Shown here one piece after another: positions 2,966 through 52,998 of a stretch of DNA of 64,000 bases; position 1 is the stretch's first letter; each line of letters begins with the position of its first letter. The notes under the pieces were generated by a model. It ran no database searches. It saw only the letters and a program-made list of their open reading frames with translations, and was not told the origin of the DNA. Made by a program: the position numbers and the translations under genes. Location of the stretch: the sequence record NC_054919.1. The stretch is one strand, 5' to 3'. The stretch is from Escherichia phage vB_EcoM_G4507.

Positions 2966-3457
2966 ATGTTTGTAGATGATGTAACACGAGCGTTTGAATC
3001 TGGTGATTTTGCTCGACCTAACTTATTCCAAGTAGAAATTTCTTATCTTGGACAAAATTTTACATTCCAATGTAAAGCCACTGCTTTACCAGCTGGTATT
3101 GTAGAAAAAATTCCAGTCGGATTTATGAACCGTAAAATTAACGTAGCAGGCGATCGTACATTCGATGACTGGACTGTTACAGTAATGAACGATGAAGCTC
3201 ATGATGCTCGCCAGAAGTTTGTTGATTGGCAAAGCATTGCTGCTGGTCAAGGAAACGAAATTACTGGTGGAAAACCTGCAGAGTATAAAAAGAGCGCTAT
3301 TGTTCGTCAATATGCTCGTGATGCTAAAACAGTAACAAAAGAAATTGAAATTAAAGGTCTGTGGCCTACTAACGTGGGTGAACTTCAATTAGATTGGGAT
3401 TCAAACAATGAAATCCAAACCTTTGAAGTAACTCTTGCTCTCGATTATTGGGAATAA
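2966..3457 (+). CDS. 19: tail tube protein gp19
   Basis: 163-aa ORF MFVDDVTRAFESGDFARPNLFQVEISYLG...; length matches T4 gp19 as recalled; synteny. Confidence 0.95.
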   Translation: MFVDDVTRAFESGDFARPNLFQVEISYLGQNFTFQCKATALPAGIVEKIPVGFMNRKINVAGDRTFDDWTVTVMNDEAHDARQKFVDWQSIAAGQGNEITGGKPAEYKKSAIVRQYARDAKTVTKEIEIKGLWPTNVGELQLDWDSNNEIQTFEVTLALDYWE

Positions 3458-3489: not shown

Positions 3490-5114
<1,625 letters not shown>

Positions 5115-17319: not shown

Positions 17320-17718
17320 TTATACTCTATTACTGGAAGCCAGTTGTAGTTTTATCTGCTCAATATCATCAGGGTTATCGATGACTGAAAAGCGTATTTC
17401 TACTATCAAAGTATAATCATCATAAACCGGTATTACATTAACTGCTAATTTATCAATACGTGGCTCATAGTTTCTTACTGCGCTTTCGATATTACGCTCA
17501 ACCGTGTCAGCAGTAAGAGGAGTCATATTCTCAAAAAGTTGGTCAGATAAATCGCATCCAAATTCAGGGTCAAACGGTCTTGAACCTTTTCTTGTTGTAA
17601 TAATTCCTAAAAGACTATTTTTAATTGACCTTAATCCAAGTGATCTTGAAACGTCTTTGTTCCAATCCATTTTCATCTCTGGGTCAATATCAGAATAAAG
17701 CTTATTAATATTTGCCAT
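17320..17718 (-). CDS. 25: baseplate wedge protein gp25
   Basis: 132-aa [66 protein letters not shown]...; gpW/gp25 family. Confidence 0.92.
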   Translation of the reverse strand: MANINKLYSDIDPEMKMDWNKDVSRSLGLRSIKNSLLGIITTRKGSRPFDPEFGCDLSDQLFENMTPLTADTVERNIESAVRNYEPRIDKLAVNVIPVYDDYTLIVEIRFSVIDNPDDIEQIKLQLASSNRV

Positions 17719-18344
17719 TACAATAGCTCAAAGAATTCTTTGAGTCCTCTTATTACATGAGCGTGAGTTTTTCCACACTCTGGACATTTAATTGGAACAG
17801 CCAAATAAACAGTAGGCTTTAAAAGCATATCTTTTATAGCTACAATATCTGACTCTGTGATGATAGAATATAAATCTTCTAGTTCCTTTTCATTTAAGTC
17901 TTCAACTGGAATGCTTTCCCCGTTAGCATGAATCGTTTCTATACATGATACTATCATGTGGGCTATATTTTTATCATCAAAAATTTTAGGGTATCGGAAT
18001 TTAATTTTAATGTCACCCAGTGTATACCAAAGGTCTTCTGGTGCATCTATTTGTGTATGTAATAGATTTATATGGGTTGGTATTTCAGTTCCGCAGGTGC
18101 ACTTCCAGGAGTTTTCGTGATTAACTTCTCCAAGAGAATGCGCCCATAAATGAATCAACAATAGTTCTGATTCTTGGCGATTTAAATCTTTTGCATTTGT
18201 GCAGTCTTTGATTAGCTTTTTAACAATTACTTCTACAGAACCATTATTTTTGGCAGTAATAAGTTCTAGATATTCTTTAAGAGTAAATGCGCGACAGTTG
18301 ATTATTTTAGAACCAACTCTCACATCAAATTTGTATTCATACAT
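17718..18344 (-). CDS. 26: baseplate hub protein gp26
   Basis: 208-aa ORF translationally coupled to gene 25; synteny 26-25 divergent from 51. Confidence 0.88.
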
Positions 18345-18365
18345 ATTTAGCTCCTTTATTTATCA

Positions 18366-18377
18366 TATTTATAAATA
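18366..18377. promoter_or_regulatory. overlapping divergent late promoters for gene 26 (minus) and gene 51 (plus)
   Basis: Plus strand TATTTATAAATA holds TATAAATA on both strands (plus 18370-18377, minus 18373-18366), each about 18-22 nt from its ATG. Confidence 0.55.
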
Positions 18378-18394
18378 GAATAAAAGGAGCATCT

Positions 18395-19144
18395 ATGGCA
18401 AACATTATTCGTTGTAAATTACCAGATGGTGTTCATCGTTTTAAACCATTTACGGTAGAAGATTATCGAGATTTTTTGTTAGTTCGAAACGATATAGAGC
18501 ATCGGTCACCACAAGAACAAAAAGAAATAATTACTGATTTAATTGATGATTATTTTGGAGACTATCCGAAGACTTGGCAACCATTTATATTTTTGCAGGT
18601 ATTTGTAGGTTCAATAGGTAAAACTAAAGTACCAGTCACATTTGTATGTCCAAAATGTAAAAAAGAAAAGACAGTTCCATTTGAAATATATCAAAAAGAA
18701 TTAAAGGAACCTATTTTTGATGTAGCTAATGTTAAAATTAAATTAAATTTTCCTTCTGAGTTTTATGAAAATAAAGCAAAGATGATTACTGAAAATATTC
18801 ATTCTGTTCAAGTAGATGAAATGTGGTATGATTGGAAGGAAATTAGTGAATCGAGTCAAATAGAACTTGTTGACGCCATCGAGATAGAAACATTAGAAAA
18901 AATTCTCGATGCAATGAATCCTATTAATTTAACATTGCACATGTCGTGTTGTGATAAGTACATTAAAAAATACACTGATATAGTAGATGTGTTTAAGCTA
19001 TTAGTTAATCCAGATGAGATATTTACTTTTTATCAAATTAATCACACGCTTGTAAAAAGTAATTATAGCTTAAATTCAATAATGAAAATGATTCCTGCCG
19101 AGCGCGGATTCGTATTAAAACTGATTGAGAAGGATAAACAATAA
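18395..19144 (+). CDS. 51: baseplate hub assembly catalyst gp51
   Basis: 249-aa ORF; AAGGAG Shine-Dalgarno; synteny 51-27-28-29-48-54. Confidence 0.88.
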
Positions 19145-20316
19145 TGAGTATGTTGCAACGCCCCGGATATCCAAATCTCAGCGTTAAATTATTTGAGAGT
19201 TATGACGCTTGGAGTAATAATAGATTTGTTGAATTAGCTGCTACTATTACCACATTAACTATGCGGGATTCTCTTTATGGTCGAAATGAAGGAATGCTAC
19301 AATTTTATGATTCTAAAAATATCCATACAAAAATGGATGGAAATGAAATAATTCAGATTTCTGTAGCTAATGCAAACGATATTAATAATGTTAAAACAAG
19401 AATTTATGGATGTAAGCATTTTTCTGTATCTGTAGATTCAAAAGGTGATAACATCATTGCTATTGAATTGGGAACTATTCATTCTATAGAAAATCTTAAA
19501 TTTGGTAGACCATTTTTCCCTGATGCAGGTGAATCTATAAAAGAAATGCTTGGTGTCATTTATCAAGACCGCACATTATTAACTCCAGCAATAAATGCTA
19601 TAAATGCTTATGTTCCTGATATTCCATGGACTAGCACATTTGAAAACTATTTGTCATATGTAAGAGAAGTTGCTCTAGCGGTAGGAAGCGATAAGTTCGT
19701 ATTTGTATGGCAAGACATCATGGGAGTTAACATGATGGACTATGATATGATGATAAATCAAGAACCATATCCAATGATTGTAGGTGAGCCAACTTTAATA
19801 GGTCAATTCGTCCAAGAATTGAAATATCCATTAGCATATGATTTTGTTTGGTTGACTAAATCAAACCCGCATAAACGTGATCCAATGAAAAATGCTACTA
19901 TCTATGCTCATTCATTTTTAGATTCTTCATTACCAATGATTACTACAGGAAAGGGTGAAAACTCTATTGTAGTGTCAAGGTCAGGTGCTTATTCTGAAAT
20001 GACTTATAGAAATGGATATGAAGAAGCTATTCGTCTTCAGACTATGGCGCAATATGACGGCTATGCTAAATGTTCTACTGTCGGTAATTTTAACTTGACT
20101 CCTGGCGTTAAAATTATTTTTAATGATAGTAAAAACCAATTTAAAACAGAATTTTACGTTGATGAAGTTATTCACGAATTATCAAATAATAATTCCGTAA
20201 CTCATCTATATATGTTCACTAATGCAACGAAACTGGAAACAATCGACCCAGTTAAGGTTAAAAATGAATTTAAAACTGATACTACCACTGAAGAAAGTAG
20301 TTCTTCCGATAAGTAA
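19144..20316 (+). CDS. 27: baseplate hub protein gp27
   Basis: 390-aa ORF coupled to gene 51 (ATGA overlap); synteny. Confidence 0.93.
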
Positions 20317-20797
20317 TAAAGAAGTTTCTATTCCTAAGATGGGTCTTAAACATTATAACATTTTAAAAGATGTTAAAGGTCCTGATGAAAATTTAAAGCT
20401 TCTTATTGATTCTATTTGTCCAAATTTATCACCGGCAGAAGTTGATTTCGTTTCTATTCATTTATTGGAATTTAATGGAAAGATTAAATCTCGTAAAGAA
20501 ATAGATGGCTATACTTATGACATTAATGATGTTTATGTATGCCAAAGATTAGAATTTCAATACCAAGGAAATACATTTTATTTTAGACCTCCTGGAAAAT
20601 TTGAACAATTTTTAACGGTGAGCGATATGTTATCTAAATGCTTGCTTAAGGTCAACGATGAAGTTAAAGAAATTAATTTTCTTGAGATGCCAGCATTCGT
20701 TTTAAAATGGGCAAATGATATTTTTACAACTTTAGCAATTCCTGGCCCTAATGGTCCAATAACTGGAATTGGCAATATTATTGGATTATTTGAATGA
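20261..20797 (+). CDS. 28: baseplate hub distal protein gp28
   Basis: ORF track starts at 20222; ATG at 20261 has an AAGG Shine-Dalgarno and gives ~178 aa; overlaps the gene 27 3' end in another frame. Confidence 0.75.
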
Positions 20798-22566
20798 AAA
20801 AGCCACAAGAAATGCAAACGATGCGTAGAAAAGTTATTTCAGATAATAAACCAACACAGGAAGCGGCTAAATCCGCTTCCAATACTTTATCTGGACTTAA
20901 TGACATTTCTACAAAATTGGATGATGCTCAAGCTGCTTCTGAATTAATAGCTCAAACCGTTGAAGAAAAATCGAATGAAATAATTGGAGCAATTGACAAT
21001 GTAGAAAGCGCAGTGAGTGATACTACTGCTGGTTCTGAGTTAATTGCTGAAACTGTCGAAATTGGCAATAATATTAATAAAGAAATCGGTGAATCGCTCG
21101 GAAGTAAATTAGATAAATTAACGAGTTTACTCGAGCAAAAAATCCAGACAGCCGGAATTCAACAAACAGGAACTAGTTTAGCTACGGTTGAAAGCGCTAT
21201 TCCTGTTAAAGTTGTTGAGGACGATACAGCTGAATCCGTGGGTCCTTTATTACCAGCTCCTGAAGCAGTTAATAATGATCCTGACGCTGATTTTTTCCCT
21301 GCCCCTCAACCAGTTGAACCTAAGCGAGAGTCACCGGAAGAAAAACAGAAAAAAGAAGCATTTAATTTAAAATTATCTCAAGCTTTAGATAAATTAACAA
21401 AGACTGTTGATTTTGGATTTAAAAAATCCATTTCAATTACTGATAAAATATCAAGCATGCTATTTAAGTATACTGTCAGTGCTGCTATTGAAGCTGCTAA
21501 AATGGTTGCATTAATAATGGCTGTTGTTATTGGAATAGACCTACTGATGGTTCATTTTAAATATTGGTCAGATAAATTTTCAAAAGCCTGGGATTTGTTT
21601 AGCACTGATTTTAAAACTTTTTCAAGCGAAACCGGAACTTGGGGTCCTTTATTACAGAGCATCTTTGAATCTATTGATGAAATTAAAAAGTTCTGGGAAG
21701 CGGGAGATTGGGGCGGTTTGACGGTAGCTATTGTAGAAGGGCTTGGAAAGGTTCTTTATAATTTAGGAGAACTTATTCAGCTTGGAATGGCTAAATTATC
21801 AGCAGCAATTCTTCGAGTTATTCCTGGTATGAAAGATACTGCTGACGAAGTAGAAGGAAGAGCACTGGAAAATTTCCAAAATTCTACTGGAGCATCTCTC
21901 AATAAAGAAGACCAGGAAAAAGTTGCGAATTATCAAGATAAACGAATGAATGGAGACCTTGGTCCGATAGCAGAAGGACTAGACAAAATTGCGAACTGGA
22001 AAACTCGTGCATCTAACTGGATTCGTGGTGTTGATAATAAAGAAGCATTGACAACTGATGAAGAACGCGCAGCAGAAGAAGAAAAATTAAAGCAGCTTTC
22101 ACCAGAAGAAAGAAAAAATGCTTTAATGAAGGCTAATGAAGCCCGTGCCGCGATGATTCGTTTTGAAAAATATGCTGATTCAGCTGATATGAGTAAAGAC
22201 TCAACGGTTAAATCAGTTGAAGCTGCCTATGAAGACCTTAAAAAACGAATGGATGACCCGGATTTAAATAATTCACCGGCAGTTAAAAAAGAACTTGCTG
22301 CTAGATTTTCTAAAATTGATGCTACTTATCAAGAGCTCAAGAAAAATCAGCCTAATGCCAAACCTCAAACTTCTGCTAAATCGCCAGAAGCAAAACAAGT
22401 CCAGGTAATAGAAAAGAACAAAGCACAGCAAGCTCCTATTCAACAAGCATCTCCTTCAATCAATAATACTAATAATGTTATTAAGAAAAATACTGTCGTT
22501 CATAATATGACACCCGTAACGAGCACGACTGCTCCTGGTGTATTTGATGCGACTGGAGTTAATTAA
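20794..22566 (+). CDS. 29: baseplate hub / tail-length determinator gp29
   Basis: 590-aa ORF with long alpha-helical central part; coupled to gene 28; synteny. Confidence 0.92.
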   Translation: MKKPQEMQTMRRKVISDNKPTQEAAKSASNTLSGLNDISTKLDDAQAASELIAQTVEEKSNEIIGAIDNVESAVSDTTAGSELIAETVEIGNNINKEIGESLGSKLDKLTSLLEQKIQTAGIQQTGTSLATVESAIPVKVVEDDTAESVGPLLPAPEAVNNDPDADFFPAPQPVEPKRESPEEKQKKEAFNLKLSQALDKLTKTVDFGFKKSISITDKISSMLFKYTVSAAIEAAKMVALIMAVVIGIDLLMVHFKYWSDKFSKAWDLFSTDFKTFSSETGTWGPLLQSIFESIDEIKKFWEAGDWGGLTVAIVEGLGKVLYNLGELIQLGMAKLSAAILRVIPGMKDTADEVEGRALENFQNSTGASLNKEDQEKVANYQDKRMNGDLGPIAEGLDKIANWKTRASNWIRGVDNKEALTTDEERAAEEEKLKQLSPEERKNALMKANEARAAMIRFEKYADSADMSKDSTVKSVEAAYEDLKKRMDDPDLNNSPAVKKELAARFSKIDATYQELKKNQPNAKPQTSAKSPEAKQVQVIEKNKAQQAPIQQASPSINNTNNVIKKNTVVHNMTPVTSTTAPGVFDATGVN

Positions 22567-22574
22567 GGAATAAT

Positions 22575-23669
22575 ATGGCAATTGTTAAAGAAATAACTGC
22601 TGATTTAATTAAAAAGTCCGGTGAGAAAATTTCAGCCGGACAGAGTACTAAATCAGAAGTAGCAACTAAAACATACACTGCCCAGTTTCCAACTGGGCGT
22701 GCTAGTGGTAATGACACTACAGGGGACTTCCAGGTAACAGATCTATATAAGAATGGATTATTATTTACTGCATACAATATGTCATCTAGGGATTCTGGAA
22801 GTCTTAGAACGATGAGATCTAACTACTCTTCTTCATCTTCGAGTATTTTACGTACAGCCAGAAACACTATCAGTAATACAGTATCAAAACTATCAAATGG
22901 ACTAATATCAGATAATAATTCAGGAACAATAAGTAAAGTTCCTGTTGCAAATATTCTTTTACCTAGATCTAAATCTGACGTCGATACGTCATCACATAGA
23001 TTTAATGATGTTCAAGATAGTCTTATTACAAAAGGTGGAGGTACTGCTACTGGTGTGCTAAGCAATATGGCTTCAACCGCAGTATTTGGAGCGCTGGAAA
23101 GTATAACACAAGGTATAATGGCTGATAATAATGAACAGATTTATACGACAGCCAGAAGCATGTACGGCGGTGCTGAAAATAGAACTAAAGTGTTCACTTG
23201 GGATTTGACTCCGCGCTCAACAGAAGATTTAATGGCTATTATTAATATCTATCAGTATTTTAACTATTTTTCTTACGGTGAAACTGGTAAATCTCAATAT
23301 GCTGCTGAAATAAAAGGATATCTAGATGAGTGGTACCGTTCTACTTTTATTGAGCCGTTAACTCCAGAAGATGCAGTTAAAAATAAGACGTTATTTGAGA
23401 AAATGACATCGAGTTTAACTAACGTTCTTGTAGTTTCAAACCCGACAATTTGGATGGTGAAAAACTTTGGTGCAACATCTAAGTTTGATGGAAAAACGGA
23501 AATATTCGGTCCATGTCAAATCCAGAGTATCAGATTTGATAAAACACCTAATGGTAACTTTAACGGATTAGCTATTGCTCCAAATCTCCCTAGTACATTT
23601 ACTCTCGAGATTACTATGAGAGAAATTATCACGTTAAACCGTGCTTCTTTATATGCGGGGACTTTTTAA
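22575..23669 (+). CDS. 48: baseplate tail-tube junction protein gp48
   Basis: 364-aa ORF; synteny. Confidence 0.92.
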   Translation: MAIVKEITADLIKKSGEKISAGQSTKSEVATKTYTAQFPTGRASGNDTTGDFQVTDLYKNGLLFTAYNMSSRDSGSLRTMRSNYSSSSSSILRTARNTISNTVSKLSNGLISDNNSGTISKVPVANILLPRSKSDVDTSSHRFNDVQDSLITKGGGTATGVLSNMASTAVFGALESITQGIMADNNEQIYTTARSMYGGAENRTKVFTWDLTPRSTEDLMAIINIYQYFNYFSYGETGKSQYAAEIKGYLDEWYRSTFIEPLTPEDAVKNKTLFEKMTSSLTNVLVVSNPTIWMVKNFGATSKFDGKTEIFGPCQIQSIRFDKTPNGNFNGLAIAPNLPSTFTLEITMREIITLNRASLYAGTF

Positions 23670-24634
23670 TGTATTCTTTAGAGGAATTTAATAATCAAGC
23701 AATAAACGCAGATTTCCAACGTAATAATATGTTCAGCTGTGTTTTTGCTACAACTCCATCAACTAAAAGCTCTTCGTTGATAAGTTCAATTAGCAACTTT
23801 TCTTATAATAACTTGGGCCTAAATTCAGATTGGTTAGGATTAACTCAAGGCGATATTAATCAGGGAATTACTACGCTAATTACAGCTGGCACACAAAAAC
23901 TGATAAGAAAATCAGGGGTTAGTAAATATCTTATTGGTGCCATGAGTCAACGTACAGTTCAAAGTTTATTAGGCTCATTTACAGTTGGTACATATTTAAT
24001 TGACTTCTTTAACATGGCATATAACTCATCTGGATTGATGATATACTCTGTAAAAATGCCAGAGAATAGATTATCCTATGAAACTGACTGGAACTATAAT
24101 TCTCCTAATATTCGTATAACTGGGAGAGAATTAGACCCTTTGGTTATTTCATTCAGAATGGATTCAGAAGCTTGTAACTATCGTGCAATGCAAGACTGGG
24201 TTAACGCTGTTCAAGACCCAGTAACTGGATTGCGTGCTTTGCCGCAAGATGTCGAGGCTGATATTCAGGTTAATCTTCATTCTCGCAATGGATTACCACA
24301 TACTGCGGTGATGTTCACTGGATGCATTCCAGTGTCCGTAAGCGCTCCTGAGTTATCATATGATGGAGATAACCAAATAACTACATTTGATGTTACTTTT
24401 GCGTATAGAGTCATGCAGGCTGGAGCAGTTGATAGACAAGCTGCGCTTGAATGGCTTGAATCTGCTGCTATAAATGGTATTCAAAGCGTTCTCGGAAATA
24501 GTGGAGGTGTCACTGGACTATCTAATTCGCTTTCACGACTTAGTAGATTAGGGGGAACTGCAGGAAGCATTTCAAATATTAACACTATGACAGGAATTGT
24601 CAATTCGCAAAGTAAAATATTAGGAGCAATATAA
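23669..24634 (+). CDS. 54: baseplate tail-tube initiator gp54
   Basis: 321-aa ORF coupled to gene 48; synteny. Confidence 0.92.
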   Translation: MYSLEEFNNQAINADFQRNNMFSCVFATTPSTKSSSLISSISNFSYNNLGLNSDWLGLTQGDINQGITTLITAGTQKLIRKSGVSKYLIGAMSQRTVQSLLGSFTVGTYLIDFFNMAYNSSGLMIYSVKMPENRLSYETDWNYNSPNIRITGRELDPLVISFRMDSEACNYRAMQDWVNAVQDPVTGLRALPQDVEADIQVNLHSRNGLPHTAVMFTGCIPVSVSAPELSYDGDNQITTFDVTFAYRVMQAGAVDRQAALEWLESAAINGIQSVLGNSGGVTGLSNSLSRLSRLGGTAGSISNINTMTGIVNSQSKILGAI

Positions 24635-24636
24635 CA

Positions 24637-24658
24637 ATGGGGACCTTTCGGTCCCCAT
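24637..24658. terminator. bidirectional hairpin AUGGGGACC-UUUC-GGUCCCCAU between gene 54 and the convergent 96-aa ORF
   Basis: 9-bp perfect stem between two convergent stop codons. Confidence 0.6.
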
Positions 24659-24960: not shown

Positions 24961-25014
24961 TCCTCATGTTATGTCAGTAAGACTACTATAACACAACACG
25001 AGGGACTTGTAAAC
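24961..25014 (-). promoter_or_regulatory. 54-bp early-promoter plus leader cassette, copy 1
   Basis: Minus strand GTTTACAAGTCCCTCGTGTTGTGTTATAGTAGTCTTACTGACATAACATGAGGA: GTTTAC (-35), TATAGT/TTATAG (-10), GAGGA SD. Matches 40215-40268 at 53 of 54 positions. Confidence 0.6.
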
Positions 25015-27071
25015 TACATCTTGAACTTTTTAGACATTCCGTTGATGTTAACCAAAGAAGCTAAGATTTGAGAAACTTCGTTTTCCTCTTCTTTTGATTC
25101 TTCTACAAGGAATTGATTAAATCCAGCCATTGGACGAACTTCACCAGTTTCCATTAGATGGTCGCCATCATATACTGATTCTTCTAATTGTTCAGAAGGA
25201 GGAACGATTGTACCTTCGATTAGATACTTGTTATAAGCAGTTTCTTTCATAAAGTAAGTACTTACTTTATTAATCTTCAGTAAAATTCCACGTGGTAGAA
25301 TAACTTCAGCTTCTGACGGAAATCCTGATAAATGACCCGGAACGATAACTTTGATTCGCTCAGCTCCTTTAATTACCATACCCACGCTAGTTTCAGCATC
25401 TTCATTAGCATATGTAGAATGACTACCCATATGCATCAAATCTTCTGCATCAACGGAACCTTCTCCTTCACCAGAAAATACTGCGCCGGAATCATCTAGA
25501 GCCATATAGTTTTTACCATGCTCACCGAAGATATTTGGTTTAAGCGATGTGGATACGAAGTTCTTGAAATAGAACATTTTATTTTCAATGTTATGACGCA
25601 AAGTTTTAAAGGTAACTTCTTGTCCACGGTAAAGTGTAGTTCCTGGAGGAAGAACTGAACCTTTAGCGAATGCAGAATCAAGCGTCTCAATATGTTTAAT
25701 AGCTCGTTCCATATATTCTTCACGGGTAGAATCTGGTTTACCCAAAAGGAACGAGTTCATTTCAACATATGAATCTGCACAATAATCTTCAATTACATCA
25801 GATTCAGCTTGAGTTAATCCTTTTGGAGTTACTTCAGTGCTTGCGTATTCATATGCCTGAGCAGCAGATTCATTAATCAATTTATAAATGCCATTCATGA
25901 CAAATTGAATAATAGCTGTCTTTTCATCTGGCGTAGCTTTAGAACCTTTAACCAAATCATTGATAATTTTCTTAATAACATCAAAGCTATTAGAAATATT
26001 AATATCAGCAAGATCGCTTAAAATTTTATCAGTCTTATAATCAAAGAATTCTTTATTCTTTAAATATTCTTGAGAACCTTGATATGTTATATCGCTCTGT
26101 AACTTGATAGATGGATCACGTAAACGTGCATGGGCTAATGCAATATGATTTCGGAAGCTTTCGAGTTCATAATCACTAGATTTAAAACGAGAAGCGCTTC
26201 TCATACCGCCTATAGCTCCTTTGCTGAAGTTTGAACCAATTTGAATAACGCCAGAGTTCATTGGTCCTTCTGCTTTATACACCGGAACTTTAGATTCAAA
26301 CTCTTGATATTTCTTAGCAGCGAAGCTATCACCCTGAAGTGAAGCATCAACAGTAGAATATTGAGCTTGTGCTGCTAATCGACGACTAATTTTAGTTTTC
26401 TGAATAACAGCTTGGTCCGTGCGCTTATCATTTTCTAAAGCAATAGAAGCAGCAACAGCAACAGCTTTAGGAACAGCATTACCTGTTTTAACATCTACAT
26501 AAACATCACCAACCTTTGATTCAACTTTTGTGAATAACTCAGTTGAAATAGGAGGTACACCTGGAATGTCTTCTAAATTGGCATTTTTACGATAAACCAT
26601 AATATATGCGTACTTTTTATCATAATCCCAGATTTCCTTTAAAAGAACATATCGACCTGCTCCTTTAGTACGTACTAAACGGTCAGCAATAACTTGCATT
26701 TGACGAGCAGCGCCATTTGTTTTACTCTTTAGTACGCGGAATAAGCATGCATCAATTTTATACTGTTTCATTGTTTGAAGAGCAGTATCAAAAACAGCGT
26801 TAATGACGCCAATTGGATTTCCACCCAAGTTTCTAAGTTTAACCAGTGATAATTTCTCGTTGACACCTATCATTACGATATGCATCATTTTATCGCCCGG
26901 CTTAACGTTTTTATTTGTATCACCTCCAGAGGTGTATGTACAAAATCTAAATCCAGGAAGCACGCTTTCTTCGCCGGCTTGAATAGCAAAAATTTGAGGT
27001 ATTTTATGCTTAGGATTTAAGTTAACAACCGGCGCCGAAGCGCCGTCAAATAATTCTGTAATAAGTTCCAT
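25014..27071 (-). CDS. Alt-like ADP-ribosyltransferase paralog
   Basis: 685 aa; N-terminus MELITELFDGASAPVVNLNPKHKIPQIF and ART motifs TLYRGQ, FYFKNFVSTSL, SEAEVILPRG align with the adjacent alt gene; ATG 3 nt after the alt stop. Confidence 0.85.
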   Translation of the reverse strand: MELITELFDGASAPVVNLNPKHKIPQIFAIQAGEESVLPGFRFCTYTSGGDTNKNVKPGDKMMHIVMIGVNEKLSLVKLRNLGGNPIGVINAVFDTALQTMKQYKIDACLFRVLKSKTNGAARQMQVIADRLVRTKGAGRYVLLKEIWDYDKKYAYIMVYRKNANLEDIPGVPPISTELFTKVESKVGDVYVDVKTGNAVPKAVAVAASIALENDKRTDQAVIQKTKISRRLAAQAQYSTVDASLQGDSFAAKKYQEFESKVPVYKAEGPMNSGVIQIGSNFSKGAIGGMRSASRFKSSDYELESFRNHIALAHARLRDPSIKLQSDITYQGSQEYLKNKEFFDYKTDKILSDLADINISNSFDVIKKIINDLVKGSKATPDEKTAIIQFVMNGIYKLINESAAQAYEYASTEVTPKGLTQAESDVIEDYCADSYVEMNSFLLGKPDSTREEYMERAIKHIETLDSAFAKGSVLPPGTTLYRGQEVTFKTLRHNIENKMFYFKNFVSTSLKPNIFGEHGKNYMALDDSGAVFSGEGEGSVDAEDLMHMGSHSTYANEDAETSVGMVIKGAERIKVIVPGHLSGFPSEAEVILPRGILLKINKVSTYFMKETAYNKYLIEGTIVPPSEQLEESVYDGDHLMETGEVRPMAGFNQFLVEESKEEENEVSQILASLVNINGMSKKFKM

Positions 27072-27074
27072 GAT

Positions 27075-29126
27075 TTATCCTTGAACGAACTTGTAAGGCA
27101 TGTTTGTAATATCTATGCAAGACGCAATAATTCCAAGAGATGATTCTACTTTCTGTTTAACATTTGATGAAACAAATGATGCAAAGTCAACTCTATCTTC
27201 TATATCACCTGTCATTGTAACTACTTCGCCGGTTTCCATTAAACGGTCACCGTCATAAATTACTGATTCGGTGAGTTCTTCGGTGGTCATAACTTCAGCT
27301 TGAATAAGCTTGTTGTTAGTTTTGACTGTTCCATCATTGTAAGATGCATCAGTTATTTTATTAACTTTGACCATTAATCCACGTGGCAAAATGACTTCCA
27401 TTTCATTTGAAGGCGCTAAACTTCCACCGGGTAAAACAACATTGACTTTATCAGCCCCAGTAATAACCCATCCAATTCCGACTAAATTATCGCTAGAATT
27501 AACAAGCCCTTCATCATTTTTATCGATAGAAATGTTTAGACGCTTTTCATCTGGTAAAACACCAACAGCTGAATCAGTCATCCAAGTACCAAAAATGTTT
27601 GGATATAATGATGTTGATACAAAATTTCTAAAATAAAAAACTCGATTTTTTACCATTGCTTCGTATATTGAAGGTAACATTCGTTGTGAACGATACAAAG
27701 TAATACCTTTTGGTAATCGTTCACCATTTTTAAAGGCTGAATCTAAATTATCAATAGCTTTTTCTATGTCAGATGCTGTCAAAATACTTGTACGCTCATC
27801 TGGATTATATAATCCCAAAAGAGCATTATTTATGTCTACATATCCTGAACCTACGTATTCACGAATTCCGCGTTTTTGTGCTGGTGTGTATTTAGATGAA
27901 TCTTTATTTTCGACTATAGGATGTAATGACCATCCAGCTGTAAGAGCATATCCACGTAATTCTCTTCGAATAATCTTTGTTTTTATTGCATTCCAAGAAT
28001 TTTGTACTAACTCATTTGCAGCATCTTGGTTTAAATGCGAATGTTTGTTAATATTTCTTTCAAACCAAGCACCTTTATATTTTTCTAAAGTATTATCGAC
28101 GATAGAAGCAATAGTTTCTAAAGTTTTTATTGAAGTAATAGATTCTTTTCGTAATTTTTCTAAAGCTTTATTTTTTATTTCTGCATTAATAATGGATTCT
28201 TTATCTTCAGGAATTATAGAAGCTTCTCTGAATGCCATCCCAGCTGTAACACTGCTAAGAGCATTCTCTAGTGCAAATCCTGAAGTAGAAATTACCGTTA
28301 ATTCATTAGAATCAGAAATTAAAGGCGCATCAGCGGGTTTATTTAATTCTGCTGCTGAAGCCTCAAATTTTTGAAACATCGGTGTTTCAAATCTAGAAGA
28401 TTCCAATGACTGACTTTGTGCAATTGCTCTACGGGAAATTTTAACTTTAACGATTACAGCTTGGTCAGAACGTTTATCATTTTCTTGTGCAATAGATGCT
28501 GCAATTGCCTCATTTTTGGTTACTTGAGCTCCGGTATCTTTATTGATATAAACATCACCGACCTTCGATTCAACTTTAGTAAAGAGCTCGGTACTAATTT
28601 CCGGAACTCCTGGAATGTCTTCTAGTGATACATTTTTGCGATGTATAAGAATATATGCATACTTTTTATCATAATCCCAGAGTTCCTTAAGAAGGACGTA
28701 TCTGCCACCTGAACGACTACGGATAAGTCTATCAGCAATAACTTGAATTTGTCGAGCTTGACCAGCGGTTTTAGACTTAAGAATACGAAGCATACAGGCA
28801 TCAATTTTATACTGACGCATTGTTTGCATCGCAACAGTAAAAACTGAATTGATATAATTAATTGGGCTTGGACCAAGACCTTTTAATTTAGCAATTGAAC
28901 CTTTAGCAGTTAATGTAAAAGGAACAATATGCATCATTTTATCGCCCATCTTTAAATCGCGATTAGTATCACCTCCAGATGTATAGGTACATAAACGAAA
29001 GCCTGGTTGTTCAATTGCATCATCAACATGAACTGAAAAAATTTGCGGTATTTTCTTCTTTGGATTTAAGTTTGTAATCGGAAGAGTAGTATCTTCGTCA
29101 AATAATTCTGTAATAAGTTCCATCAT
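27075..29126 (-). CDS. alt: Alt ADP-ribosyltransferase (capsid-packaged, injected)
   Basis: 683 aa; MMELITELFDEDTTLPITNLNPKKKIPQIF...; R-S-ExE motifs ITLYRSQ, FYFRNFVSTSL, NEMEVILPRG; late promoter upstream. Confidence 0.9.
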   Translation of the reverse strand: MMELITELFDEDTTLPITNLNPKKKIPQIFSVHVDDAIEQPGFRLCTYTSGGDTNRDLKMGDKMMHIVPFTLTAKGSIAKLKGLGPSPINYINSVFTVAMQTMRQYKIDACMLRILKSKTAGQARQIQVIADRLIRSRSGGRYVLLKELWDYDKKYAYILIHRKNVSLEDIPGVPEISTELFTKVESKVGDVYINKDTGAQVTKNEAIAASIAQENDKRSDQAVIVKVKISRRAIAQSQSLESSRFETPMFQKFEASAAELNKPADAPLISDSNELTVISTSGFALENALSSVTAGMAFREASIIPEDKESIINAEIKNKALEKLRKESITSIKTLETIASIVDNTLEKYKGAWFERNINKHSHLNQDAANELVQNSWNAIKTKIIRRELRGYALTAGWSLHPIVENKDSSKYTPAQKRGIREYVGSGYVDINNALLGLYNPDERTSILTASDIEKAIDNLDSAFKNGERLPKGITLYRSQRMLPSIYEAMVKNRVFYFRNFVSTSLYPNIFGTWMTDSAVGVLPDEKRLNISIDKNDEGLVNSSDNLVGIGWVITGADKVNVVLPGGSLAPSNEMEVILPRGLMVKVNKITDASYNDGTVKTNNKLIQAEVMTTEELTESVIYDGDRLMETGEVVTMTGDIEDRVDFASFVSSNVKQKVESSLGIIASCIDITNMPYKFVQG

Positions 29127-29146: not shown

Positions 29147-29154
29147 TATTTATA
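29147..29154 (-). promoter_or_regulatory. late promoter TATAAATA for alt
   Basis: Minus-strand TATAAATA about 21 nt upstream of the alt ATG. Confidence 0.5.
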
Positions 29155-40271: not shown

Positions 40272-41859
<1,588 letters not shown>

Positions 41860-51762: not shown

Positions 51763-52416
51763 TTAATACTTACAAGATTTCACAGTTTCAATGAAAACAT
51801 TTTTAGCTTTCTGTGAATCAATATTTAAAATTTTTCTATAAGCCTTTAACTTTATAGAATAATTATTCCAGACTAAATTATCAGTCTGTTCATCATGTTT
51901 ATCAATTATATTTAAAAATGAATCAAGCAAGATAAACGTCTCAAACGAAATTATGTTCGATTGCAGAAGTTTAAAAATATAACTTGACTGAACCTTTGGA
52001 TTATATTCAAAGATTTCTTTAAAAGCAGAAACTTCAACTTTTTTACTAAAATAGTAAATATTGCGAATATCTTCTTCAAACTTAAACTTAATTTGCTTTA
52101 AGCGTCCGATATATTCACGATAAAACACAAGTGCATCAGCGTCAGAGATGTCACCAATCCAAGCATCTTGGTTAGCAACCAAATTACTTATAAAGATTAA
52201 AGCAAGTTCCTTTAATTTATATTTTTCTGATAACTTCTGGAAAAAATACTTATCCCTTCGCTTTTGATAAGCGGCATCAGACACCCGCATGCACCAATTA
52301 TACTTAATTACATCATACTTTCCATTCATATGCTGTTTTATCATTAAGTATAATTTATAAACTGATTTACCATCAATGTATCTTTCACCACCAGCAGGCA
52401 TGCGGAGTTTAATCAT
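51763..52416 (-). CDS. 59: helicase loader gp59
   Basis: 217-aa ORF immediately upstream of gene 32; synteny 33-59-32. Confidence 0.9.
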   Translation of the reverse strand: MIKLRMPAGGERYIDGKSVYKLYLMIKQHMNGKYDVIKYNWCMRVSDAAYQKRRDKYFFQKLSEKYKLKELALIFISNLVANQDAWIGDISDADALVFYREYIGRLKQIKFKFEEDIRNIYYFSKKVEVSAFKEIFEYNPKVQSSYIFKLLQSNIISFETFILLDSFLNIIDKHDEQTDNLVWNNYSIKLKAYRKILNIDSQKAKNVFIETVKSCKY

Positions 52417-52751
52417 AGTAGAAAATCTAATGTATTAGTTTTTTCACAACGAACAACAGAAGGACGTAAAAGATTTTCGTCAATAGCTTCTGACTGAATT
52501 TTTTCAATTATACCCGAAGGAATAAATTTAGCAAATTGAGTTTCAGGAATAGAATTTTCTTCTAAGAATGCTGTTGTAGCTTCAAGATAACTCATTCCAA
52601 ACTCTTCTACCATTTTTTCAATAATAAATCCATTTTCTTGGCGGTCAAGAAGCTTTGCAATTTCATCCTTTTCTTTCTTAATTGAAAGTTCTTTTTCTGA
52701 AAGTCCGGTCTCATCGACCGGACGAATATCATTTAGAGAAAACTGTGTCAT
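52413..52751 (-). CDS. 33: late transcription co-activator gp33
   Basis: ORF-track start 52760 trimmed to MTQFSLNDIRPVDETG... (112 aa); coupled to the gene 59 start. Confidence 0.85.
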   Translation of the reverse strand: MTQFSLNDIRPVDETGLSEKELSIKKEKDEIAKLLDRQENGFIIEKMVEEFGMSYLEATTAFLEENSIPETQFAKFIPSGIIEKIQSEAIDENLLRPSVVRCEKTNTLDFLL

Positions 52752-52998
52752 AAAGTTCAACTACCTCTTCAGTTTCAGCTTCAAACACATCACGATTATC
52801 TTTATGATACAAAGCTAACAGACGATTAAACATCTTACCATCAACGCCAAGTTCATCTTTGGCACGAATTCGAATATCTTTAATCAATTCATTATAACCA
52901 GAAATTTTCAGTTTATGATCAGATGCTTCTTTAATAAATTTAGCCAAGTCTTCGCCATGGATAGCTTCATCAAATTCAACCATTTCTTTTTTAGCCAT
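52729..52998 (-). CDS. dsbA: double-stranded DNA-binding protein DsbA (late transcription enhancer)
   Basis: 89-aa ORF between rnh and gene 33; length and position match T4 dsbA as recalled. Confidence 0.8.
   Translation of the reverse strand: MAKKEMVEFDEAIHGEDLAKFIKEASDHKLKISGYNELIKDIRIRAKDELGVDGKMFNRLLALYHKDNRDVFEAETEEVVELYDTVFSK

Follow-up and report, generated by a model that had tools for sequence, protein, structure and literature searches.

How are two divergent sets of late baseplate genes in a T4-type phage both transcribed from an intergenic spacer of only 50 bp, and could they be transcribed from it at the same time? The question is raised by the junction between genes 26 and 51 of Escherichia phage vB_EcoM_G4507 (NC_054919.1), of which a stretch of 64,000 nucleotides, referred to here as the window, was analysed computationally. 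The genes on the two sides of the spacer are arranged as follows.

17320-17718, minus strand: gene 25, 132 aa, baseplate wedge subunit, adjoining gene 26
17718-18344, minus strand: gene 26, 208 aa, baseplate hub / hub assembly (PF12322, E = 8.8e-64; phrog_150; T4 annotation)
18345-18394: divergent spacer of 50 bp, with gene 26 on the minus and gene 51 on the plus strand
18395-19144, plus strand: gene 51, 249 aa, hub assembly catalyst (PF12322, E = 1.2e-54)
19144-24634, plus strand: five tightly packed ORFs, genes 27, 28, 29, 48 and 54, with names from the T4 order
24637-24658, both strands: bidirectional terminator-like hairpin with a 9-bp stem, six G-C pairs and a T-run on the plus strand

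Gene 26 starts at 18344 on the minus strand (CAT at 18342-18344) and gene 51 at 18395. The initial annotation had taken them to be the baseplate-hub genes 26 and 51, and this assignment stands, with both ORFs matching PF12322 (T4_baseplate) and the spacer between them being base-for-base identical to that of phage T4 (AF158101, 116429-116478). In the T4 record gp26 is annotated as a baseplate hub subunit and gp51 as a baseplate hub assembly catalyst; of the rightward genes, the T4 annotation consulted covers 51 and 27, while genes 28, 29, 48 and 54 were named by T4 gene order. The hairpin separates the rightward late cluster from a converging minus-strand ORF (25014-27071) and is likely to be the end of the rightward unit.

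Within the spacer is a 12-bp sequence, TATTTATAAATA, that reads identically on both strands and has no second copy in the window. It carries an exact copy of the late-promoter octamer TATAAATA on each strand, and we refer to the two putative promoters, after the genes that they face, as P26 and P51. The features of the spacer are listed below.

18350-18357 and 18383-18390: arms GCTCCTTT and AAAGGAGC of a perfect 8-bp inverted repeat, from the mirrored Shine-Dalgarno regions
18351-18356, minus strand: AAGGAG, gene 26 Shine-Dalgarno sequence, within the predicted leader and 6 nt from the ATG
18360, minus strand: A, predicted +1 of P26 from the -13/-6 rule, leader of 16 nt
18364..18357, minus strand: GATAAATA, a second octamer with one mismatch, 12 nt from ATG26 and 2 nt downstream of the P26 box
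18366-18377: TATTTATAAATA, perfect 12-bp palindrome, putative common core of both late promoters, symmetry axis between 18371 and 18372
18373..18366, minus strand: P26 late-promoter octamer, exact TATAAATA, with -13 at 18373 and -6 at 18366
18370-18377, plus strand: P51 late-promoter octamer, exact TATAAATA, -13 to -6
18383, plus strand: A, predicted +1 of P51 from the -13/-6 rule, leader of 12 nt
18384-18389, plus strand: AAGGAG, gene 51 Shine-Dalgarno sequence, within the predicted leader and 5 nt from the ATG

The two octamers overlap by the 4 bp of their upstream halves (18370-18373), and bases 18366-18369 belong to the P26 octamer only. That the 12-nt element carries TATAAATA on both strands with a 4-nt offset had been pointed out in the initial annotation, which placed the octamers about 18-22 nt from the ATGs; the matches were found to be exact and the measured gaps, 17 nt to ATG51 on the plus strand and 21 nt to ATG26 on the minus strand, agree with that estimate. 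Exact copies of TATAAATA are abundant in the window, with 18 found against 8.6 +/- 2.6 in dinucleotide-preserving shuffles (n = 100), none of which reaches 18. Twelve of these 18 sites precede the ATG of a similarly oriented ORF (at least 50 aa) by 14-34 nt, and this placement indicates that the motif is used systematically in the genome. In their position the spacer copies resemble the other copies in the window. For the 12-mer itself, one copy compares with 0.06 expected per window and 6 of the 100 shuffles contain one, so that its rarity by itself is only suggestive and the decisive evidence comes from conservation.

In a T4 late promoter an 8-bp TATA box precedes the start by about one helical turn; a -35 element is lacking, and the DNA immediately after the box is rich in A+T (PMC2988020). 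The octamer TATAAATA occupies positions -13 to -6 (PMC1524935). Both octamers of the spacer conform to this definition, under which either TATAAATA or a single-mismatch variant is allowed at -13 to -6. Neither has a conserved -35 element and both are followed by A+T-rich DNA, the pentamers downstream of the two boxes being GAATA and TGATA, each 4/5 A+T. By the -13/-6 rule the predicted start sites are back to back and 23 bp apart, and their T4 equivalents are 116467 on the plus strand (18383) and 116444 on the minus strand (18360). Each octamer has the same orientation as the virion gene that it precedes, and each predicted leader includes a ribosome-binding site; a Shine-Dalgarno-like purine run is present in every aligned orthologous spacer. 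A consensus scan found no sigma-70-like -35/-10 site in the spacer, and over the region it gave 46 matches against 53.5 in shuffles, which is not above the shuffled level. The conserved unit is the 8-bp gp55 late box and not a TATAAT-type hexamer of the housekeeping sigma. With its overlapping -10-type boxes on opposite strands, the pseudo-symmetric element has the make-up of a bidirectional promoter (sensu Warman et al.).

Among genes 27 to 54 no copy of TATAAATA was found that is exact, or gene-proximal with one mismatch; these genes are therefore presumably transcribed from P51, and no late-promoter-like site was found for gene 25 itself, which would thus presumably be co-transcribed from P26. 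Judged by sequence, the palindrome would hold the only plausible late promoters for both units, with gene 26 as the first gene of the leftward late unit and gene 51 as the first of the rightward one, the extents of both units being putative. One component of the late machinery is encoded in the window.

52416-52751, minus strand: gene 33, late-transcription co-activator (PF16805, E = 5.3e-27; phrog_254)

The 64-kb window does not reach genes 55 and 45; gp55 is present in all sequenced T4-related genomes (PMC2988020). Gene 33 overlaps dsbA (52732-52998, minus strand) by about 20 nt, and a conserved dsbA-33 coupling is mentioned in the review of T4 late transcription (PMC2988020).

By investigating the conservation of the junction we found that the palindrome is its most constant part. 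The 1.5 kb around the spacer are 100% identical to Escherichia phage vB_EcoM_G4498 and 95-99% identical to some 470 other T4-like phages, and the window can be assigned to a Tequatrovirus. Orthologous 26/51 junctions were then taken from phages of decreasing similarity and their spacers aligned. TATTTATAAATA is invariant in 14 of 17 T4-like phages, from 13 genera or lineages (Tequatrovirus, Mosigvirus, Moonvirus, Gelderlandvirus, Jiaodavirus, Karamvirus, Winklervirus, Gaprivervirus, Acinetobacter phage 133, an unclassified Klebsiella phage, Bragavirus, Acajnonavirus and Hadassahvirus), and these 14 phages span Tevenvirinae, Twarogvirinae and Bragavirus. The rest of the spacer varies, with a length of 45-65 bp and the commonest base at flanking positions accounting for 30-80%, and conservation ends exactly at the ends of the octamers. 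The four bases unique to each octamer correspond to positions -17 to -14 of the opposite promoter. They are invariant across the lineages, whereas the same positions vary freely at the 16 other TATAAATA sites in the window, from which it follows that both octamers are under selection. The initial annotation had proposed late promoters in this spacer, a proposal supported by the exact octamers at defined positions together with the conservation of both, and the palindrome would appear to be a real and deeply conserved pair of overlapping, divergent late promoters.

The phages that depart from this pattern do so in different ways. In the Aeromonas phages (Biquartavirus 44RR2.8t; Tulanevirus) a 10-bp palindrome, TATTTAAATA, is found at the same junction; in phages 50AhydR13PP and 44RR2.8t this variant has a TAAATA core on each strand, the cores overlapping by 2 bp, and the predicted start sites are separated by 21 bp as against 23. 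In Krischvirus the plus-strand octamer is kept and a 1-nt insertion breaks the minus-strand octamer. The best minus-strand candidate there is ACTAAATA, which does not overlap and gives a spacing of 31 bp, suggesting that the overlap itself is not obligatory. In Pseudotevenvirus (Cronuts) and Slopekvirus (KLB1) there is no divergent junction, gene 51 and a weak gp26 relative being in tandem. The order on the one strand is a tail-tube initiator/junction gene, a G+C-rich hairpin, gene 51 and the weak gp26 relative, and in both phages neither the palindrome nor TATAAATA is found before gene 51.

The symmetry of the locus extends beyond the promoters. Both gp26 and gp51 match PF12322 over their whole length and belong to one PHROG (phrog_150), with a weak direct similarity (BLASTP, 19% identity, E = 2e-4), and on the strength of this shared family the two genes are regarded as head-to-head paralogues. 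TATTTATAAATA is near the axis of a 24-nt quasi-palindrome and the whole spacer is quasi-palindromic (18348-18395). The head-to-head layout suggests that the locus, promoter included, goes back to an ancient inverted duplication.

The mirrored Shine-Dalgarno regions also have a consequence for RNA. The arms GCTCCTTT and AAAGGAGC pair only in an RNA that reads through the whole spacer. Such RNAs are predicted, in the two directions, to fold with energies of -12.7 and -13.9 kcal/mol (z = -2.6 and -3.3), sequestering the Shine-Dalgarno sequence of the downstream gene, while RNAs beginning at the predicted late +1 leave it free. The fold could limit translation to late transcripts, in which it would resemble a known T4 device for late-only translation (PMC2988022), though the pairing could also be an automatic product of having two mirrored Shine-Dalgarno sites.

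The palindrome was also sought outside the known T4-like genomes, by scanning IMG/VR contigs for copies between mirrored Shine-Dalgarno cores (CTCC...GGAG), with swapped flanks as the control. At least 120 viral contigs have the palindrome with the mirrored cores, as against 14 for the swapped-flank control. Among the matches listed, 25 of 120 are 26/51 junctions. Recurrent pairs among the rest of those listed include head closure (gp4-like) with tail-tube cap (gp48-like) and tail tube with tail tube, and portal and endolysin genes are likewise found beside the palindrome. In the listed contigs other than 26/51 junctions TATAAATA is barely enriched (167 copies against 129-164 in shuffles), so that this set is a mixed one, and the idea that all of the metagenomic matches are T4-type late junctions was not upheld.

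Several explanations other than a pair of late promoters have to be considered. A perfect palindrome could arise by chance in A+T-rich intergenic DNA, as it does somewhere in the window in a few of the shuffles, but its presence at the same position of the orthologous spacer in so many diverged phages, together with its excess over the control in the metagenomes, means that chance is ruled out for practical purposes. It is also conceivable that only P51 is functional, in which case the P26 octamer would be a by-product of the palindromy and gene 26 would be transcribed from GATAAATA or by read-through. In favour of this, GATAAATA is a near-consensus site on the gene 26 strand, and not all of the 50 late-promoter sites listed for T4, of which 32 have the perfect consensus, are proven to be active in vivo (PMC2988020). 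However, the TATT at 18366-18369 is at -17 to -14 of P51, which is unconserved in late promoters, and yet it is invariant here, while GATAAATA is not conserved outside Tequatrovirus in the genera examined. A transcript from GATAAATA would start 7 nt before the ATG and lack a Shine-Dalgarno sequence, and in read-through RNA the Shine-Dalgarno sequence of gene 26 is predicted to be sequestered. We consider it very unlikely that P51 is alone, and GATAAATA, which was discarded as the true gene 26 promoter for its lack of conservation and of a Shine-Dalgarno sequence in its transcript, is probably incidental.

Perfect 12-bp palindromes are also typical of the operators of dimeric proteins, and since T4 DsbA is DNA-binding and encoded in the window, the element might mainly be an operator for DsbA or for another such factor, through which both genes would be controlled. 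Against this, the two promoters account for every conserved base, with conservation stopping where the octamers stop; DsbA binds weakly (micromolar) and its gene is non-essential (PMC2988020); and the 10-bp variant of the Aeromonas phages keeps the TAAATA cores but alters the half-site spacing, a change that a dimer operator would tolerate poorly. An operator as the main function is therefore highly improbable.

Whether the two promoters can be used at the same time depends on the size of the complex that forms on them. In the activated complex the gp45 clamp occupies the upstream end and makes contacts at -39 and -36/-35, and the clamp-activated footprint exceeds the basal one by 13 bp (PMC2988020). 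Position -39 corresponds to 18344 for P51 and to 18399 for P26. Since the activated complex reaches to at least -39, either complex would cover the whole spacer, with the other box and its start, and simultaneous occupancy of P26 and P51 can safely be taken as excluded on structural grounds, the extent of the footprint being that of the published biochemistry. The initial annotation had argued from the overlap that the two elements cannot both be occupied, which indeed follows from the published late-complex footprint (PMC2988020). Steric exclusion of opposing polymerases has been stated for sigma-70 bidirectional promoters as well, where competition matters only at high promoter activity (PMC12825309).

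It would seem likely, with a probability of roughly 0.85, that the palindrome is a bidirectional T4-type late promoter that serves both units, fires in one direction per event with the direction set by the clamp, and is a compact arrangement as opposed to a switch. Host RNA polymerase core with gp55 and gp33, activated by the gp45 sliding clamp, would initiate at P51 near 18383 and proceed rightward through 51-27-28-29-48-54 to the hairpin at 24637-24658, or at P26 near 18360 and proceed leftward through genes 26 and 25. A single activated complex, extending from about -40 to beyond +1, would cover the entire spacer and so allow one direction per initiation event. Which way the element fires would most likely depend on how the clamp that brings in or activates the polymerase is oriented, and not on free competition. 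By the published clamp polarity rules the activation of late promoters by the clamp is polar, from which we infer that a clamp loaded on one strand would serve only one of P26 and P51, though the idea is extrapolated from templates with a single promoter. The compact, symmetric layout would derive from the old head-to-head duplication and be held tight by selection on both promoters. The palindrome is probably not a dedicated regulatory switch.

The opposite case, that the overlap is itself a selected regulatory device in which polymerase competition couples or balances the two hub operons, so that more initiation in one direction would mean less in the other, takes the mutually exclusive or balanced initiation predicted in the initial annotation to be a function and has several points in its favour. 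The 12-mer and its 23-bp geometry are strictly kept across the 13 genera or lineages, both octamers are perfect consensus with a 4/5 A+T stretch just downstream, and the first genes of both units are paralogous hub assembly factors; moreover, strongly activated bidirectional promoters of E. coli repress the divergent RNA through polymerase competition (PMC12825309). The conservation would, however, be accounted for just as well by two independent promoters confined to a short spacer. Other spacings also exist, 21 bp in Aeromonas phages and 31 bp without overlap in Krischvirus, the T4 4/53 junction has a different, crossed geometry, and Pseudotevenvirus and Slopekvirus do without the arrangement. 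In addition, clamp polarity means that the two directions may draw on different clamp populations without competing. For these reasons we regard a device of this kind as unlikely.

A bolder extension of clamp-set direction is that the superposition of P26 and P51 acts as a sensor of clamp polarity, and hence as a readout of replication direction, or that it is a general module of late junctions; this we view as speculative and improbable. A gp45 clamp in such a sensor would activate one promoter only, namely that for which the strand with its loading site is the non-transcribed one. If this were true, the ratio of leftward to rightward transcripts would report the strand and fork direction that loaded the clamps, and selection would have kept the 23-bp geometry as a link between replication and the dosage of the paralogous hub-assembly genes. 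The T4 origin oriF is only about 1.1 kb from the P26/P51 element. The broader form, if true, would make palindromic bidirectional late promoters a general, uncatalogued module at divergent late junctions.

Returning to the bidirectional late promoter as the preferred reading, its closest counterpart is P26/P51 of T4, which has the same 50-bp spacer, the same flanking genes and the same two octamers. In the element itself there is no difference, the window being from a different Tequatrovirus isolate. The pair is already known in T4, fits established classes and is in that respect ordinary: Scarlato, Storlazzi, Gargano and Cascino (Virology 1989, 171:475) reportedly described overlapping T4 promoters for the divergent transcription of the base plate gene cluster, and are said to have mapped transcripts from both promoters. 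A companion paper on the 25/26/uvsY transcription units (Gruidl et al, Virology 1991, 184:359) is cited in PMC2988022. The T4 GenBank record (AF158101) has no promoter features in the 26/51 region, and PMC9161530 and PMC3004832 make no mention of P26/P51 promoters; a T4 dRNA-seq preprint (10.1101/2024.04.04.588121) reports 150 T4 start sites.

Compared with the T4 late promoter class that depends on gp55, gp33 and gp45, reviewed by Geiduschek and Kassavetis in 2010 (PMC2988020), P26 and P51 are alike in the 8-bp box, the lack of a -35 element, the A+T-rich DNA downstream and the location before virion genes. A typical T4 late promoter stands alone, however, whereas here two are superimposed on opposite strands with 4 bp in common. 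Bacterial bidirectional promoters (Warman et al.; PMC12825309, PMC10268837) likewise consist of a pseudo-symmetric A+T-rich element that gives divergent mRNAs, and their common start separations are 10, 18 and 23 bp (PMC12825309), the last being the same as the 23 bp predicted here from starts assigned by rule. They use sigma-70 and a hexamer, in contrast to the phage gp55 and 8-bp box of the element in the window, which also depends on a DNA-tracking, orientation-specific sliding clamp, while sigma-70 promoters have no such polarity rule. The element is thus the gp55 version of a bidirectional promoter in concept and not a member of the sigma-70 class. The junction of genes 4 and 53 in T4 (AF158101, 77338-77384) is likewise a short divergent late spacer, of 47 bp, with one exact TATAAATA on each strand. 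There the arrangement is crossed, in that the leftward octamer is placed to the right of the rightward one at a distance of 7 bp, and no palindrome is present. In local numbering (spacer 4339-4385) the rightward box is at 4350-4357 and the leftward box at 4365-4372, and the predicted starts, 4363 on the plus and 4359 on the minus strand, cross by about 4 nt.

What the present analysis adds to the T4 pair is the depth of its conservation together with the 10-bp variant, the head-to-head paralogy, and the occurrence of the palindrome at other divergent junctions in metagenomes. With two perfect-consensus promoters, each of which can be removed through its unique 4 bp, the spacer offers a compact natural test bed for the question of whether polymerase competition matters at highly active phage promoters. 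The invariance in 13 lineages, the 10-bp variant, the absence from tandem layouts and the recurrence in metagenomes provide a conservation map for such experiments.

A number of minor observations were made in the course of the work. Two exact copies of TATAAATA on the plus strand, 2885-2892 and 2944-2951, are 59 bp apart upstream of an ORF at 2966-3457 (163 aa) and may be tandem late promoters. Another exact copy on the plus strand, 40808-40815, is inside and antisense to a minus-strand ORF (40272-41396) with no ORF downstream; it could be an antisense late start or have arisen by chance. In Enterobacter phage CC31 (NC_014662) the RefSeq record places the start of gene 51 at position 575 in local numbering, 99 nt (33 codons) beyond the conserved ATG at 476, and this ATG aligns with that of all the other phages and with the Karamvirus PS49 annotation; the RefSeq start in CC31 is probably mis-annotated. 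Finally, two adjacent minus-strand ORFs, 25014-27071 and 27075-29126, encode proteins of about 684 aa each with 42% mutual identity (E = 8e-162), and the upstream ORF of the pair is preceded by an exact TATAAATA at 29147-29154. From the T4 gene order we take alt to be the gene expected at 25014-29126, and the two ORFs seem to be tandem Alt-like paralogues.
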